This document shows, piece by piece, positions 3,886 through 19,469 of a stretch of DNA of 24,190 nucleotides. The notes beneath the pieces are model-generated. The model had not been told where the DNA came from and searched no databases. It saw only the letters and a list, made by a program, of their open reading frames with translations. The translations under genes were made by a program, and so were the position numbers. The stretch comes from an uncultured Candidatus Saccharibacteria bacterium (GTDB lineage Bacteria; Patescibacteriota; Dojkabacteria; SC72): positions 1-24,190 of the forward strand of contig CAZCCQ010000001.1 in assembly GCA_964497595.1 (NCBI GenBank), in the 5' to 3' direction. Within the stretch, counting starts at the first letter, position 1. The number at the start of each line of letters is the position of its first letter.

Positions 3886-4521
3886 ATGTTTCCTAGAGAA
3901 AAATATTTAGAAAGAGGTATTGATTCTCTTTCAGATATGGAATTGTTGGCCATTATTGTTGGTAGGGGGATTAAGGGGAAGAATTTTCTTTCAGTTTCTA
4001 GGAGTTTGTTGAGCAAGATGAGAAAAGTTTTGGAGACAAAACAGGAGGTTACATTAGAGAGTATTTCGGATATTGATGGGATTGGGGTAGTGACTGGGAT
4101 GAAAATTTTGTGTGGGATAGAATTGGGGAGAAGGCTATATGATTTAGGCGAGGGAGAGAGAAGTTTAGTACGTAATTCACAGGAGGCATTTGCTTTGTTA
4201 AAGTATATATCGAAGAAGAAACAGGAGCATATAGTTGCTCTTTTTTTGAATTCTAGGTTTGAGGTAATATCAAAGAGGGTGATTTGTATTGGGAGTTTGG
4301 ATGGTGTCTCAGTGTTGCCTCGAGATATCATAATTCCAGCTTTGGAGGTTAATGCTAGTAGTGTTGTTATTGCACATAATCATCCGTCAGGGGATAGTAC
4401 TCCTAGTTTAGAGGATATTGATATTACCAAGAGAATTAGTGATGGGTTAGAGTTGGTGGGGTTGTCTTTGCTTGATCATATTGTAATAGGGAAAAATGAG
4501 TGGAAAAGAGTAGAAATTTGA
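3886..4521 (+). CDS. radC: RadC family protein (HhH N-terminal part plus JAB/MPN domain)
   Basis: LSDMELLAII, IDGIG...IELGRRL, IAHNHPSGDSTPSLEDIDIT, LLDHIVIG. Confidence 0.95.
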   Translation: MFPREKYLERGIDSLSDMELLAIIVGRGIKGKNFLSVSRSLLSKMRKVLETKQEVTLESISDIDGIGVVTGMKILCGIELGRRLYDLGEGERSLVRNSQEAFALLKYISKKKQEHIVALFLNSRFEVISKRVICIGSLDGVSVLPRDIIIPALEVNASSVVIAHNHPSGDSTPSLEDIDITKRISDGLELVGLSLLDHIVIGKNEWKRVEI

Positions 4522-4527
4522 AAATGT

Positions 4528-4556
4528 TTGTTTTGGGATCCATTCTTTGCTATGAT
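4528..4556 (+). promoter_or_regulatory. Putative extended -10 promoter of the surface protein gene
   Basis: TTGTTT (4528-4533), 17-nt spacer, TG-c-TATGAT (4548-4556). It lies downstream of the ORF-track start 4500 and so supports ATG 4581. Confidence 0.5.
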
Positions 4557-4580
4557 GAAGGTATAGAAAAAACTGCTATT

Positions 4581-6752
4581 ATGCGAAATAAATCTGGTGT
4601 AAAAAATAAAAGTAAAATCGCCCTCTTTGTTGTGTCATTTACTCTCTTTGTCGTTGGTACATTCTTTTCTTTAAAAAGTATTCAATTGGATAAATTTATA
4701 CAGTTAGTTAATGGTGAAGAAATTCTTCAAGAAATAGAAGAGGTAGCAGAAAAGGTAATAGAAGAATCAGTAAAGGAGGGTGGTGTAGAGCCTAAAGTGG
4801 AAGTAACAGAAGAAAAGACAGGAGAGGAAATTAGTGAGAGTATTCAAGAGGTTGATGGTGGCAAATTAAAAGATGAAGGGAATGATATTGAACAGCCAAG
4901 TGTTGAAAGAATTACGGAAGAGGTTGCGGTTACGGAAGTAACTGATTTAAAGGGGAAAGAGCTAGAAGAAGGCAAAATGAAGTCTCCAACTCTCGAGCTA
5001 GGAATGTCTCCCACAGTTCCTGATGTGGAAAGTAACAAGAGTGATATAATTTTAGAGAATTTGTCTCCTGTGCCAATGGGAGGGAATGATCCGACTTTAA
5101 TTATTGAGAAAACAATTATTAATAACGATGGAGGGACAGCGACTGTAGATGATTTTGCTATTAGGCTAAATGGGGAATTATTAACTTTTGGTCCTCCTGT
5201 GAATTTGTCTGTTGGTAAATTATATCGATCATATCCTTCTGTTGTAACTGGAGTTCCCTATACATTAACAGAAATAGATCATCCAGGGTATGTCGAAGGA
5301 TTTTGGTACTGTGAGGATTCTATGGAAGAGGTGCAAGTACCTATACCTATGCCACTTACTTTTTTAGAAGGACAGGAAATCGTTTGTAGAATAACTAATA
5401 ATGATAGAAATGGACAAGAGTTGGCGAATTTGAAAATAATTACAAATGTTGTAGATTTATTAGGGCTAGGTGTTAAGGCAACTGATTTTAAGATTACGGT
5501 ATCGCAGTATGAACAAAGTCTTTTGGAATTTTGGGGTAGTGAGATTGGTACAGATATGATCTTGGATCCTGGCAATTATGACTTATTTGTTGAGGATGAG
5601 AGCTATAACTATCAAGTAGTAACTGTTTTTAGTCCCGAATGTCCTCGTCCTTATGAGTCTCATTGGGGTCTTGTAAATTTAGAACCAGGGGAGAATAAGG
5701 TGTGTACAATAACTAATTATGTATTTCCTAAGGCTTTTGTTTATGGATATAAGATGTTGCTTAACAGTGAAAATGTTCTTCATACTAATTGGGTCAATAC
5801 GGATATCCCTAATGACATATTTAGTGTTTTGTTAAAAAATGAGAGTGGTGGCTCAGATATTTTGTTAAATTTCCCTGTTTTTGAAGGTAGCGATCCTGCT
5901 GATATAGCTATTGATTACAAAGCTCAAAATTTTCAAGCTATTGCACCAGGTACATATAGAGTAAATGAAGTACAAAAGGATGGATACATATCAAAAGGAT
6001 GTACGATGGCGTGTAAAGGTCGTCTCGAATTTGATTTCCCACCTAGTACAACTGTTATAACAATTGATGACGGAAATTGGGAATGTAAAGTAGAGTGCAC
6101 AAATCAGGTGGTAGAAAATTCTCAATTGGAAGTCACAAAGAGTAATGATTCTCCAGCAACTGGGGTAGAGGTCGGCAGTGATGTTATGTATACAATAAGA
6201 TTGAAGGCGCCTGTGAATAATGAAGACGGAAATTACATAGTTAAAAACGTTGTAACATTTGACAGATTGCCAAAGGGCTTTTTATATAAAAGTGGTAGCT
6301 GGAAAGCAATTTCTACAAAACGAGGGGAGTTAAATATATTGGAGCCAATATATGGAGGAGAGGACTGGGCTAAATGGGATGTTGGGGATATGGTGGAAGG
6401 AGAGGAAGTTACGTTAACATATATTACAAAAGTATCTTCAGGAGTAACTCCTGGAGTGTATCCTGATAGTGCTTGGGCTTCTGGTGGTTCTGTATTGGGA
6501 GCTCGGGTATTAGGTAATGTGTCTACTGGTTCTTCTTCAGAGTTTGTTGAGACGGAGGTGAAAGTGTTGGGTTTGTCAGGACATCTTCCTAGTACTGGTT
6601 CTGACACATTTTTAACAATATTTTCTGTAGTTATTACAGCTATTGGGGTAATACTTTTGTCTTACAATTTTAAAAAAGGCTGTGGCGCCTATAGTGTATT
6701 AAATATCTCTTCTAAACAGCGAAATAGTACATACATACCAAGAGAAAATTGA
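4581..6752 (+). CDS. Large surface protein: N-terminal TM, acidic E/V-rich linker, about three prealbumin/SpaA-like beta domains, DUF11-like domain, LPSTG motif, C-terminal TM and tail
   Basis: MRNKSGVKNKSK followed by a hydrophobic helix; PTLIIEKTIINNDGGTATVDDF...VCRITNND and a second ...VCTITN unit; LEVTKSND...VMYTI...VVTFDRLPKGF-Y..GS...VTLTYITKV (DUF11-like); LPSTG at 6585-6599 followed by a TM and FKK. Domain names are recognised by pattern only. Confidence 0.7.
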   Translation: MRNKSGVKNKSKIALFVVSFTLFVVGTFFSLKSIQLDKFIQLVNGEEILQEIEEVAEKVIEESVKEGGVEPKVEVTEEKTGEEISESIQEVDGGKLKDEGNDIEQPSVERITEEVAVTEVTDLKGKELEEGKMKSPTLELGMSPTVPDVESNKSDIILENLSPVPMGGNDPTLIIEKTIINNDGGTATVDDFAIRLNGELLTFGPPVNLSVGKLYRSYPSVVTGVPYTLTEIDHPGYVEGFWYCEDSMEEVQVPIPMPLTFLEGQEIVCRITNNDRNGQELANLKIITNVVDLLGLGVKATDFKITVSQYEQSLLEFWGSEIGTDMILDPGNYDLFVEDESYNYQVVTVFSPECPRPYESHWGLVNLEPGENKVCTITNYVFPKAFVYGYKMLLNSENVLHTNWVNTDIPNDIFSVLLKNESGGSDILLNFPVFEGSDPADIAIDYKAQNFQAIAPGTYRVNEVQKDGYISKGCTMACKGRLEFDFPPSTTVITIDDGNWECKVECTNQVVENSQLEVTKSNDSPATGVEVGSDVMYTIRLKAPVNNEDGNYIVKNVVTFDRLPKGFLYKSGSWKAISTKRGELNILEPIYGGEDWAKWDVGDMVEGEEVTLTYITKVSSGVTPGVYPDSAWASGGSVLGARVLGNVSTGSSSEFVETEVKVLGLSGHLPSTGSDTFLTIFSVVITAIGVILLSYNFKKGCGAYSVLNISSKQRNSTYIPREN

Positions 6753-6866: not shown

Positions 6867-8003
6867 ATGGCAGACGCCAAAAAAGAAGTCTTGGAGAAAA
6901 CTGAGACTAAAAACAAGAGTTTTCAATTACCAGAGTTGTTAGATTTACTTAAGGTGGGAGCTCATTTTGGGCATAAGAAGAGTGCTTGGGATCCTCGTAT
7001 GAAGAAGTATATCTATGAGGTTCGAAACGATACTCATATAATCGATTTGGTAAAAACTTTGGAAAATTTAGATGTTGCTTTAACAAAGTTGCAAAATTAT
7101 GCAGATAAAGGGAGTATTTTGATTGTTGGTACGAAAGGTCAGGCATCTACTATTGTAGAAGATGTGGCTACAAAGTTTGGTATGTTCTACATCAATAGAA
7201 GATGGCCGGGAGGATTATTTACAAACTTTGAGGGTATGAAGAAGAGTGTGCAGTCTTTGGTAAAGATGGAGGAGCAGTTGGCAAGAGGTGCGAAGGGATT
7301 AGTGAAGAAGGAGGCTCTTCTTTTGGAGCAGGAGGTAGAGAGATTGAACAAGATTTATAGAGGTATTAAGTTTATGGATAGACTTCCAGAGGCAATTATA
7401 GTAATTGATAGTCAGGTAGAGAAGAATGCTATTAAGGAATCAATAAATATGCATATTCCTATAATTGCTTTGATTGATACTAATTGCAATCCAGATATTA
7501 TAGATTATCCTATTCCTGCGAATGATGATTCGCTTAAAAGTATTTCTCTTTTCGCAGAGTTGTTTGGTAATGTAGTTGGGAAATCAAAGAAGGCCCTCTC
7601 TCTTCTGTCTTTGAGAAGAGATAATGAAGCAATGTTAGCAAAATTAAGAAAAGATTTTGAAGATGAGAAGGAGAGACAGTCGAAGATGGAGGAAGAAGAT
7701 AGGGAGAGAATGAAAGCTTTAAGAGAAGGCAAAATTAAGACAGTTCATACGGGTTCGGTTATTAGGGTAGTTAAGAAGGATAAAGATATGGATGAGGAGA
7801 TTAAGAAAGCAGAGGAAGTAAAAAAGAAAGAGGATAAAAAGGGAATTGATGGACTGGGTCTTTCTGCAAGAATTGTGAAATCTCTTAACGATGTAGGTAT
7901 TAAAAATGTTGCTGATTTAAAGAAGATGGATAAAGAGGAGATTTTGGCAGTAAAGGGAATTGGTGAAAAAGCAGTTAAGGATATTCAGAAAGCTATTAAA
8001 TAA
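6867..8003 (+). CDS. rpsB: 30S ribosomal protein uS2 with a long C-terminal extension (coiled coil plus alpha-CTD-like HhH domain)
   Basis: GAHFGH, HIIDL, ILIVGTK, YINRRWPGGLFTNF, LPEAIIVID, IIALIDTNCNP, YPIPANDDS; about 140 extra residues follow the core. Confidence 0.97.
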   Translation: MADAKKEVLEKTETKNKSFQLPELLDLLKVGAHFGHKKSAWDPRMKKYIYEVRNDTHIIDLVKTLENLDVALTKLQNYADKGSILIVGTKGQASTIVEDVATKFGMFYINRRWPGGLFTNFEGMKKSVQSLVKMEEQLARGAKGLVKKEALLLEQEVERLNKIYRGIKFMDRLPEAIIVIDSQVEKNAIKESINMHIPIIALIDTNCNPDIIDYPIPANDDSLKSISLFAELFGNVVGKSKKALSLLSLRRDNEAMLAKLRKDFEDEKERQSKMEEEDRERMKALREGKIKTVHTGSVIRVVKKDKDMDEEIKKAEEVKKKEDKKGIDGLGLSARIVKSLNDVGIKNVADLKKMDKEEILAVKGIGEKAVKDIQKAIK

Positions 8004-8023
8004 TTTTAAGTAAAAGAAAGGGT

Positions 8024-8743
8024 ATGGCAAAAGTAACAATAGAGGATATTAAATTGCTAAGAGCAAAGACATCTGCCGGTATGGCTTTGTGTAAAGAGGC
8101 TTTGGAGAAGTCAAAGGGCGATATGAAGAAGGCAATAGAGTATATTAACGAGAGAAGTGATGTTATTGGTAGATTGAGAAACTTGACTGGAGCTAAGATA
8201 GGGCTTTGTAAAATTGCTTTTCAGGATGCTGAGAAAGATTTTGAGAAGGCAGTAGAGCTGATCAAAGAGCGAGGTTGGGATGATCCAATGCAGGGTGATT
8301 CTGAAGGGAAAGCAGAGGGAGTTATAGATGCGTATGTTCACGGAGCAGACAAGAGATTGGTTGCTTTGGTAGAACTTAACTGTAAAACAGATTTTGTTGC
8401 TAAGAACGAAGATTTTAGAACTTTAGCACACGAAATTGCACTTCAGGTAGCTGCTATGAAGCCAGAGTTTGTTTCTAAAGATTCTTTAGATGAAAAGGAA
8501 TTGAAATCATTGAAAGAGACATTTGAGAAGGAAATAGAGGGTGGGAAAAAATCAAAAGAAATGGTTGAGAAAATAGTGGAGGGTAAGTTAAATAAATATC
8601 TGTCTGAAAAGTGTCTTTTGGAGCAGAAGTGGTTTAAGGATGAATCTAAAACAATTTCTGCACTGTTAGACGAAGCTACTCAGAAATTAGGTGAACCTCT
8701 AAAGGTTTCTAGAATTCTTGTGTGGGAGTTAGGCAAAAAGTAG
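8024..8743 (+). CDS. tsf: Elongation factor Ts, short type, with duplicated N-terminal UBA-like domain
   Basis: IKLLRAKTSAGMALCKEAL, AEGVIDAYVH, LVELNCKTDFVAKNEDF, LAHEIALQVAA, LLEQKWFKDESKTI; directly follows rpsB. Confidence 0.95.
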   Translation: MAKVTIEDIKLLRAKTSAGMALCKEALEKSKGDMKKAIEYINERSDVIGRLRNLTGAKIGLCKIAFQDAEKDFEKAVELIKERGWDDPMQGDSEGKAEGVIDAYVHGADKRLVALVELNCKTDFVAKNEDFRTLAHEIALQVAAMKPEFVSKDSLDEKELKSLKETFEKEIEGGKKSKEMVEKIVEGKLNKYLSEKCLLEQKWFKDESKTISALLDEATQKLGEPLKVSRILVWELGKK

Positions 8744-8751
8744 AGTCATTG

Positions 8752-8780
8752 TAGACATCTTTGCTCCATTCATATACAAT
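8752..8780 (+). promoter_or_regulatory. Putative sigma70 promoter of frr-rseP
   Basis: TAGACA (8752-8757), 17-nt spacer, TACAAT (8775-8780); GGAGG SD at 8798-8802 before ATG 8813. Confidence 0.6.
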
Positions 8781-8812
8781 TATCTGTATATAACATTGGA
8801 GGGGGTACTTCT

Positions 8813-9358
8813 ATGGATTTAAATCAATTTAAGGTTGATATCTCTAAGTGTGTAGATCACGTAAGGGAGGATCTTTCTCAGATTCGAACTGGTAGGGCAA
8901 CTCCTGAATTGGTGGAGGAAGTTCTAGTAAACGCATATGAGAGTCAATCTCCTATTAAAAATTTAGCAACAATTAGCGTTGTAGATGCCAAGACAATAAA
9001 TATTCAGCCTTGGGATAAGACGATTTTAGATAATATTAGCAAGGGTATTAGCTCTGCTAACTTAGGTTTTTCTCCAATATTGGAGGGAGATAGAGTTCTT
9101 GTTAAAATTCCTGATTTGACGGAAGAAAGAAGACAGGAGTATGTCAAGATTATGAAAGAGAGAATAGAGGATGGTAGGGTTGCAGTTCGACAGGTAAGGC
9201 AGAAGCAGATGAAAGATATTGATGAGTCTCAGAAGGGTGGGTTATCGGAAGACGAGGCTGATAGATTGAGGGATGAGGCAGAGAAAGTGGTGAAGGATGC
9301 AAATAGTCAGATAGAGAGTATTCGAGAGGAAAAAGAGAAAGAACTTTTAACTATTTAA
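8813..9358 (+). CDS. frr: Ribosome recycling factor
   Basis: IRTGRATPELVEEV, IQPWDKT, KIPDLTEERRQEYVK, EDGRVAVRQVR. Confidence 0.97.
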   Translation: MDLNQFKVDISKCVDHVREDLSQIRTGRATPELVEEVLVNAYESQSPIKNLATISVVDAKTINIQPWDKTILDNISKGISSANLGFSPILEGDRVLVKIPDLTEERRQEYVKIMKERIEDGRVAVRQVRQKQMKDIDESQKGGLSEDEADRLRDEAEKVVKDANSQIESIREEKEKELLTI

Positions 9359-18888: not shown

Positions 18889-19469
18889 AGTTGAGGTCTA
18901 CACCTCACCCTCATTCATCATTTGTTCATCGATTTCCATTATTGGCTTCCTACGTCGCTTTTGCGATGTACTTCTGAGATAGAACCACCTGTAGCTTTCG
19001 ACTGGTGCTCCTCCAATCAAGTCAGCCTCCAACGGATTGTTTCTCAAATAAGAGATTATTGATTCCAAATCTCTAATCCCAACGATTCTTCTTACCTGAA
19101 AAGGACCTTGAAATAGGCGACCAACCTTTTTGTATTCTCGATTGGAATATGCCACATAGGAGATCATAAATCCTTGCATACACTTAGATATTGATTCTGT
19201 ATCTACACCATTCTTTAGAAGCAAATGGTAATGATTGGGTAAAAAACAGTAGGAAATAATAGTTAATCCATATTTTTTGCAATATCTATGCAGTAAACTG
19301 CAGAAGACCTTGTAATCTTTCTCTCTTCTGAAAATATTCTCTTTATGGTTCCCCCTATTATAAATATGGTAAAAAGAATTCCTTCTGTAAATCAGCTTAT
19401 TCCTTAATTTCGGCATATTGAAAGTATATTTGAATAATATTAAAAAGTTTTGAACAGAGTCGAGGTCTA
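18889..19469 (-). mobile_element. Putative RAYT-carrying insertion bounded by 12-bp near-identical direct repeats
   Basis: AGTTGAGGTCTA (18889-18900) and AGTCGAGGTCTA (19458-19469); interrupts the conserved dnaX-ybaB-recR order in opposite orientation. Boundaries are inferred. Confidence 0.4.
18898..19416 (-). CDS. REP-associated tyrosine transposase-like HUH (Y1) nuclease
   Basis: FYHIYNRG, ENIF, YCFLPNHYHLL (HUH), GRLFQGPF, YLRNNP (catalytic Tyr), YRW. Confidence 0.88.
   Translation of the reverse strand: MPKLRNKLIYRRNSFYHIYNRGNHKENIFRREKDYKVFCSLLHRYCKKYGLTIISYCFLPNHYHLLLKNGVDTESISKCMQGFMISYVAYSNREYKKVGRLFQGPFQVRRIVGIRDLESIISYLRNNPLEADLIGGAPVESYRWFYLRSTSQKRRRKPIMEIDEQMMNEGEV

Follow-up and report, generated by a model that had tools for sequence, protein, structure and literature searches.

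A doubled N-terminal domain in the elongation factor Ts of Dojkabacteria

The tsf gene and its internal repeat

The DNA analyzed here, referred to as the window, is a stretch of 24,190 nucleotides (contig CAZCCQ010000001.1, assembly GCA_964497595.1) from an uncultured bacterium deposited as Candidatus Saccharibacteria and placed by GTDB in the Dojkabacteria. Its tsf gene (8024 to 8743, plus strand; 239 amino acids [aa] and a stop codon) encodes elongation factor Ts (EF-Ts) of the short, Thermus type with a doubled N-terminal domain. All features named in this section lie on the plus strand. The outermost, extra domain, copy 1 (aa 7 to 44; 8042 to 8155), is UBA-like and carries the hairpin LRxKTSAGMxLCKEAL...GD. 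It is followed by a junction of a single residue, S45 (8156 to 8158), within the motif N42-x-R44-S45-D46, and then by copy 2 (aa 46 to 83; 8159 to 8272), a probably UBA-like domain that adjoins the core and contains the turn TGAKIG[LH]CK. The linker (aa 84 to 97; 8273 to 8314) starts with G84-W85, includes P88, and continues as an acidic, variable stretch. The core and C-terminal part (aa 98 to 237; 8315 to 8734) are of the short type, as recognized by PF00889 and Foldseek, and hold a TDFV motif (T122, D123, F124, and V125; 8387 to 8398). Directly upstream of tsf is rpsB (6867 to 8003; PF00318, 241.8 bits), given here for context, which encodes the ribosomal protein uS2 of 378 aa; directly downstream is frr, encoding ribosome recycling factor (8813 to 9358; PF01765, 164.7 bits).

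A preliminary description of this DNA, made from its letters, had named the product EF-Ts, and profile and structure searches agree: NCBIfam TIGR00116 (tsf) scored 156.8 bits against a cutoff of 104.05, Pfam PF00889 (EF_TS) scored 113.3 bits against a cutoff of 27, and the closest solved structure by sequence was Thermus thermophilus EF-Ts (1aip_C, 196 aa; E = 5.4e-37). PF00889 matched in one stretch, as expected of a single core, and paired aa 97 to 237 with profile positions 78 to 203 only, which identifies the protein as an EF-Ts of the short type. The TDFV motif (aa 122 to 125) is invariant in 25 of 25 aligned relatives (alignment A1) and aligns with "cetdfva" of Thermus EF-Ts. Judged by sequence, it is the equivalent of the Asp80/Phe81 wedge by which E. 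coli EF-Ts expels GDP from elongation factor Tu (EF-Tu), a role that the relevant passage of PMC3556154 assigns to F81, citing Kawashima et al. 1996. We consider the window protein to be the genuine product of a single tsf gene and an EF-Ts of the working type with a Thermus-like core, for which exchange activity is predicted.

The preliminary description had also proposed that the N-terminal domain is duplicated in tandem, and the repeat proved robust. The segments aa 7 to 44 and aa 46 to 83 (together 8042 to 8272) align without gaps, match at 16 of 38 positions, and score 69 under BLOSUM62 (ungapped). When copy 2 was shuffled, none of 100,000 permutations equaled the observed score or identity, and the local alignment score was not attained in any of 5,000. 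In their DNA the copies agree at 63 of 114 bases, so the repeat is old, and neither recent nor made by assembly. A canonical profile built solely from the N termini of 119 single-domain EF-Ts proteins matched both copies, copy 1 at 61.3 bits and copy 2 at 41.6 bits, so that the domain scan suggested in the preliminary description yields two hits. Pfam EF-Ts_N likewise marked two stretches and UBA_8 marked aa 48 to 79, with both Pfam scores under their gathering cutoffs. Residues 4 to 195 of Thermus EF-Ts (1aip_C) align to aa 45 to 237 at ~40% identity, with copy 2 corresponding to Thermus residues 4 to 42, and the linker that follows copy 2 is as long as the one joining N-domain and core in Thermus EF-Ts. 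Since this alignment starts at aa 45, copy 2 occupies the orthologous position and copy 1 (aa 1 to 44) is the addition.

Both copies are recognizable in a predicted structure of the whole protein. An AlphaFold2 model of the full-length sequence, computed from a 25-sequence alignment (pLDDT 85.6), consists of two consecutive three-helix units followed by a beta-rich core. The helices of copy 1 span residues 6 to 16, 20 to 29, and 34 to 44 (pLDDT 79 to 89), and those of copy 2 span residues 47 to 55, 59 to 68, and 73 to 82 (pLDDT 84 to 88); only two nonhelical residues, with pLDDT ~84, separate helix 34 to 44 from helix 47 to 55, and the linker is modeled at pLDDT 67 to 75. A Foldseek search with this model returned 1aip_C as the best match (E = 4e-15, TMt 0.70), and the core superimposed on 1tfe with a root mean square deviation (rmsd) of 1.5 Å over 142 columns (TMt 0.92). 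Matches to UBA domains of human mitochondrial EF-Ts (2cp9), NAC (1tr8), and HYPK (5nnr) had rmsd values of 1.7 to 1.8 Å over 39 to 43 columns at weak E values of 0.2 to 1.3. Copy 1 is thus modeled as a three-helix UBA-like bundle. For copy 2 the same fold is likely, given its similarity to the canonical profile, the full-length model, and the T-G turn residues that it retains.

Conservation, asymmetry, and distribution of the two copies

We asked how widely the doubled domain occurs among relatives of the window protein. The best 120 clusters (90% identity) all contained proteins of 233 to 259 aa that covered the full query, and wherever a taxon name exists it is Dojkabacteria or WS6. A search seeded with P0121, the most divergent member (61% identical), produced 2,381 significant clusters, of which those retrieved were again all of this kind, and two matches to the canonical profile were present in every cluster retrieved (204/204). 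When GTDB was scanned with one genome for each species, 98 species were positive, and 80 loci were kept for comparison; all 80 encode proteins of 235 to 239 aa in which the two copies are present and copy 1 is closely preceded by a start codon. We also ran an exhaustive HMMER search against the 50%-identity cluster representatives of 1.84 billion proteins. Among the best 150 of its 9,126 matches, adjacent copies were seen in three (P0121, P0122, and P0129, two of the three being fragments), while the other 147 had a single N-domain or were long polyproteins with at least two nonadjacent N-domains, most of them ~240 aa apart. One of these polyproteins, P0124 (597 aa), had three nonadjacent N-domain profile matches (62 to 94, 141 to 186, and 383 to 428), and other long polyproteins had two. 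As far as we can see from these sequences, the doubled N-domain is class-wide in Dojkabacteria and, among the best 150 of 9,126 matches, class specific. The authors of the preliminary description knew of no account of this architecture, and in the searchable full-text literature we too found neither this doubling nor any peculiarity of EF-Ts in the Candidate Phyla Radiation (CPR) described. A paper on CPR ribosome biogenesis reports translation-related losses in Dojkabacteria (der, era, rbfA, and H78) and is silent on EF-Ts (PMC12641178).

Selection on the two copies was estimated from codon alignments of 81 genes, using 50 pairs with pS < 0.6. The ratio of nonsynonymous to synonymous substitutions (dN/dS) was lowest in copy 1 (0.076) and copy 2 (0.093), followed by the core (0.122) and the linker (0.174), which is the least conserved region. 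Invariant positions numbered 15 of 38 in copy 1 and 11 of 38 in copy 2. These ratios indicate that both copies are kept under strong purifying selection and that neither is decaying. An old and selected duplication, as the preliminary description had supposed, is what these values and the occurrence of both copies in all species loci and clusters point to.

The two copies are conserved in different ways. Residues were counted over 81 sequences. In copy 1, R13, K15, T16, S17, G19, C23, K24, A26, and L27 are invariant, and in copy 2, T55, G56, K58, I59, G60, C62, and K63 are. R12, M19, M20, and K23 of E. coli EF-Ts reportedly contact EF-Tu. The equivalent of R12 is R13 in copy 1 (81/81) and is variable at position 52 of copy 2 (R in 40 sequences, H in 38, and K in 3); that of M19 is M20 in copy 1 (79/81) and I59 in copy 2 (81/81); that of M20 is A or G in copy 1 and G60 in copy 2 (81/81); and that of K23 is K24 in copy 1 and K63 in copy 2 (81/81 each). 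The Gly of the TGAG turn is retained in copy 1 and replaced in copy 2 by the invariant Lys, K58. Accordingly, the statement in the preliminary description that both copies keep Arg and Lys, with one Met in copy 1 and none in copy 2, is accurate for the window sequence but does not carry over to the clade in one respect, the Arg of copy 2. Furthermore, copy 1 outscored copy 2 against the canonical profile in 204 of 204 clusters.

Conservation extends into the junction and the start of the linker. Within the junction motif N-x-R-S-D, S45 occurs in all 81 sequences and D46 and N42 occur in 80 each; after copy 2, G84 and W85 are found in all 81, and P88 is invariant in the 25 sequences of alignment A1. 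The basic linker AKxAKKAxR of canonical EF-Ts is missing after both copies. Among the 119 single-domain EF-Ts proteins, the canonical linker columns hold K in 99, K or R in 116, and R or K in 112; in its place, copy 2 is followed by GW[DN]xP and then an acidic stretch. Taken as sequence evidence, these patterns indicate that the canonical EF-Tu-binding hairpin is better preserved in copy 1 and that copy 2 holds the canonical position with an invariant turn of its own, TGAKIG. This asymmetry, with the canonical hairpin on the outside and the canonical position on the inside, is a point that goes beyond the preliminary description. The copies also have features in common that are rare in canonical domains, a Leu at the canonical Asp/Glu site and an Ile at the canonical Leu site. 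Such shared derived residues fit a duplication within the lineage, and the sequences are consistent with a tandem duplication of the N-terminal domain in the ancestor of Dojkabacteria.

One covariation was seen within copy 2. His61 accompanies only His52 or Lys52; none of 40 Arg52 proteins in the species set has it, nor does any of 89 in the cluster set (Fisher p = 6e-8, uncorrected for phylogeny, so that the pattern may reflect a single lineage). Positions 52 and 61, encoded at 8177 to 8179 and 8204 to 8206, have R12 and D21 as their counterparts in E. coli EF-Ts, and their coupling would fit a packing of helix 1 against helix 2.

Possible roles of the doubled domain

The N-terminal domain of EF-Ts moves helix D of EF-Tu during GDP release. 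Its hairpin is the EF-Tu-binding element, and in the passage of PMC4739770 that cites Wieden et al. 2001 it is described as common to EF-Ts and the ribosomal protein bL12. The explanation that we favor as a whole, with a probability of about 0.5, is an in-class duplicated EF-Ts in which copy 1 acts on helix D and copy 2 serves as an adaptor or a second contact. The two copies would form one fairly rigid, two-faced module instead of beads on a string. Copy 1 would contact helix D of the EF-Tu G domain in the classical way, and copy 2 would have taken on a new, clade-specific task, that of an adaptor holding copy 1 in position; copy 2 may in addition touch EF-Tu or, in an (EF-Tu·EF-Ts)2 complex, the partner subunit. 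Nucleotide exchange itself would proceed by the usual catalytic mechanism. Rigidity of the two-domain module is suggested by the invariance of the sequence and by pLDDT rather than by interdomain error estimates.

Several observations weigh against parts of this explanation. The canonical spacing to the core is that of copy 2, not of copy 1, so if copy 1 does sit on helix D, the geometry of the complex must differ from those that have been solved; and it is from sequence that we infer which copy touches EF-Tu. The history of the repeat can be read in another way as well. The copies share 16 of 38 residues with each other, compared with 11 to 23 of 38 with N-domains of other phyla. Being no closer to each other than to those domains, they are also compatible with a fusion to a foreign 5' fragment of tsf. 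Finally, the preliminary description had made its proposal depend on a three-helix fold of aa 46 to 83, and here the models disagree: the full-length model has the three helices, but when copy 2 was modeled alone (aa 44 to 91, 24 sequences, pLDDT 89.5), helices 1 and 2 were fused, giving one helix at model residues 2 to 25 and another at 30 to 40, with weak UBA matches (E > 4, rmsd 7 to 10 Å).

A tentative alternative, to which we give clearly less credence, exchanges the roles: copy 2 would be the helix D binder, having coevolved with a changed EF-Tu, and copy 1 would remain unattached, able to catch a second EF-Tu and thereby raise its local concentration, or to bind a different partner for this type of hairpin (another translational GTPase or the ribosome). 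Bivalent capture of EF-Tu or a second partner is what the preliminary description had inferred. The orthologous placement of copy 2 described above (Thermus residues 4 to 195 on aa 45 to 237, with a linker of equal length) is what this alternative would predict, as is the invariance of the copy 2 turn and its Lys, and both copies have conserved exposed residues. Because bL12 binds EF-Tu by a hairpin of this type (PMC4739770), a free hairpin could plausibly bind a GTPase. However, copy 2 has no fixed residue at the site of E. coli R12 (R40/H38/K3) and reads K-I-G at the canonical G-M-M positions, and the invariant one-residue junction argues against a copy 1 that swings freely. Neither the window nor the 80 related loci (±10 kb) contain the EF-Tu gene of the clade. 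A bolder proposal, and one we regard as improbable, is that a single EF-Ts protomer engages two GTPases (two EF-Tu molecules, or EF-Tu and another GTPase) or mediates a bL12-like handover of EF-Tu at the ribosome. If true, the elongation cycle of these bacteria, whose ribosomes are reduced, would have been rewired in a lineage-specific manner.

It is very unlikely that one copy is a functionless relic or a structural spacer left by neutral duplication. Copy 2 does lack several canonical motif residues and scores ~20 bits lower than copy 1 against the canonical profile, as might be expected of a relic. Nevertheless, dN/dS in both copies is below that of the catalytic core, neither copy has been lost in any of the 204 clusters or 80 species, and the invariant positions of both copies include exposed charged ones. 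In copy 2 these are R50, K58, K63, and E74, with K75 present in 79 of 81 sequences, and such charges argue for an interface and not a passive spacer.

We rate still lower the idea that the extra domain docks on a C-terminal extension of uS2 and so couples EF-Ts to the 30S subunit. The genes adjoin, and the tail of uS2 (aa 240 to 378; 7584 to 8000), ~140 aa long, consists of a K/E-rich charged segment and a helix-hairpin-helix domain; aa 316 to 377 (7812 to 7997) match the RNA polymerase alpha C-terminal domain (CTD) family PF03118 at 48.4 bits and also HHH_5. By tblastn on the loci, this alpha-CTD-like, helix-hairpin-helix tail is conserved in 73 of the 80 related Dojkabacteria species and absent from six, and a word-index search with the extension returned 11 fragments. 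In those six species (L039, L044, L057, L069, L072, and L074), uS2 ends before the domain or has a Lys/Ala-rich tail, but both EF-Ts copies are kept, which makes an obligate partnership with uS2 unlikely and weakens the suggestion in the preliminary description that the extended uS2 may be a partner. rpsB lies upstream of tsf in 79 of the 80 loci; to our knowledge, this adjacency is near-universal in bacteria and so is no evidence of a special link. Carried on the 30S subunit, such an alpha-CTD-like domain might play a part in contacts between ribosome and polymerase or with nucleic acids.

An artefact, whether a misassembly or a start codon placed too far upstream of a truly single-domain protein, can be dismissed, since Logan contigs from four runs of three studies (two of the contigs being equal in length and depth and possibly the same data) cover 7800 to 8800 with 0 differences and no joints, 80 independent species assemblies share the architecture with a start codon just 5' of copy 1, copy 1 is under codon-level purifying selection, and the window protein has no Met between M34 and M88 and hence no internal start. 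The exact sequence of 7800 to 8800 was found in bioreactor, activated-sludge, and other metagenome runs, with partial matches in sludge and anaerobic-digester runs, which marks the organism as an inhabitant of engineered anaerobic or sludge systems.

Few translation factors are as conserved or as well understood as EF-Ts, and the doubled N-domain is a lineage-specific variation of a well-known protein. Dojkabacteria (at least 80 to 98 GTDB species, ~2,000 sequence clusters) constrain both N-domains more strongly than the catalytic core and so offer a natural experiment on how the contact with EF-Tu works. The doubled domain also extends the list of peculiarities in the translation machinery of CPR/Patescibacteria. 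The feature represents no new kind of system, opens no long-standing question, and is in our view of moderate value.

Gene context and comparison with known systems

The gene order rpsB-tsf-pyrH-frr is common in many bacteria. No pyrH (UMP kinase) gene lies between tsf and frr in the window (8743 to 8813), and the genes after frr encode an RseP-like protease of family M50 and a Flg_new_2 repeat protein. Other genes of the window are housekeeping genes (topA, dprA, radC, mfd, dnaX, recR, cysS, pth, and ybeY). Positions 4500 to 6752 encode a predicted surface protein of 750 aa with SpaA-like prealbumin and DUF11 domains, in which a C-terminal LPSTG precedes a hydrophobic segment; it has the look of a pilin or adhesin anchored by sortase. 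Between dnaX and ybaB-recR lies a gene for an IS200-like Y1 transposase (18898 to 19416, minus strand; PF01797, E = 4e-10).

The nearest known counterpart is the short, dimeric type of EF-Ts represented by Thermus thermophilus (1AIP and 1TFE), which resembles the window protein in its core, C-terminal part, TDFV motif, and linker length. Thermus EF-Ts, however, has one N-domain and a basic linker (AMKAAKKADREAREG), whereas the window protein has an additional domain of 44 aa and an acidic GW[DN]xP linker. With the long, E. coli-type EF-Ts (1EFU, ~283 aa), the window protein shares its function class, the N-terminal EF-Tu-binding hairpin, and TDFV. In the E. coli type it is the core that is internally duplicated (subdomains N and C), and a coiled-coil is present; the window protein lacks these and has its N-domain doubled instead.

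More than one EF-Ts N-domain per polypeptide also occurs in PETs-type polyproteins, and P0123 to P0134 and similar matches of our HMMER search are presumably such proteins from plant and algal plastids. PETs-type polyproteins comprise two complete EF-Ts units, usually preceded by S1 domains. There, the whole unit is repeated, the N-domains are ~240 aa apart, and the chain is 470 to 1130 aa long, in contrast to the back-to-back 39-aa domain of the window protein. We considered whether the window EF-Ts is itself a PETs-type polyprotein, and its single core and the spacing of its N-domains by 39 aa, compared with ~240 aa among P0123 to P0142, rule this out.

At the level of fold, eukaryotic tandem UBA proteins and the UBA domains of NAC and HYPK belong to the same three-helix, UBA-like class as the window domains are modeled to. 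For all of these the resemblance is one of fold alone; the window sequence is of the EF-Ts N-domain type, and its context holds no ubiquitin system. The CTD of bL12 provides a functional parallel, as its alpha-hairpin binds helix D of EF-Tu according to the passages of PMC4739770 (citing Wieden et al. 2001) and PMC3299993 (citing Kothe et al. 2004) concerned with this contact. It presents an EF-Tu-binding hairpin of the same type as that of the EF-Ts N-domain, in another protein and in another overall fold context, and because several copies of bL12 are carried by each ribosome, it offers a precedent for the multivalent presentation of such hairpins.

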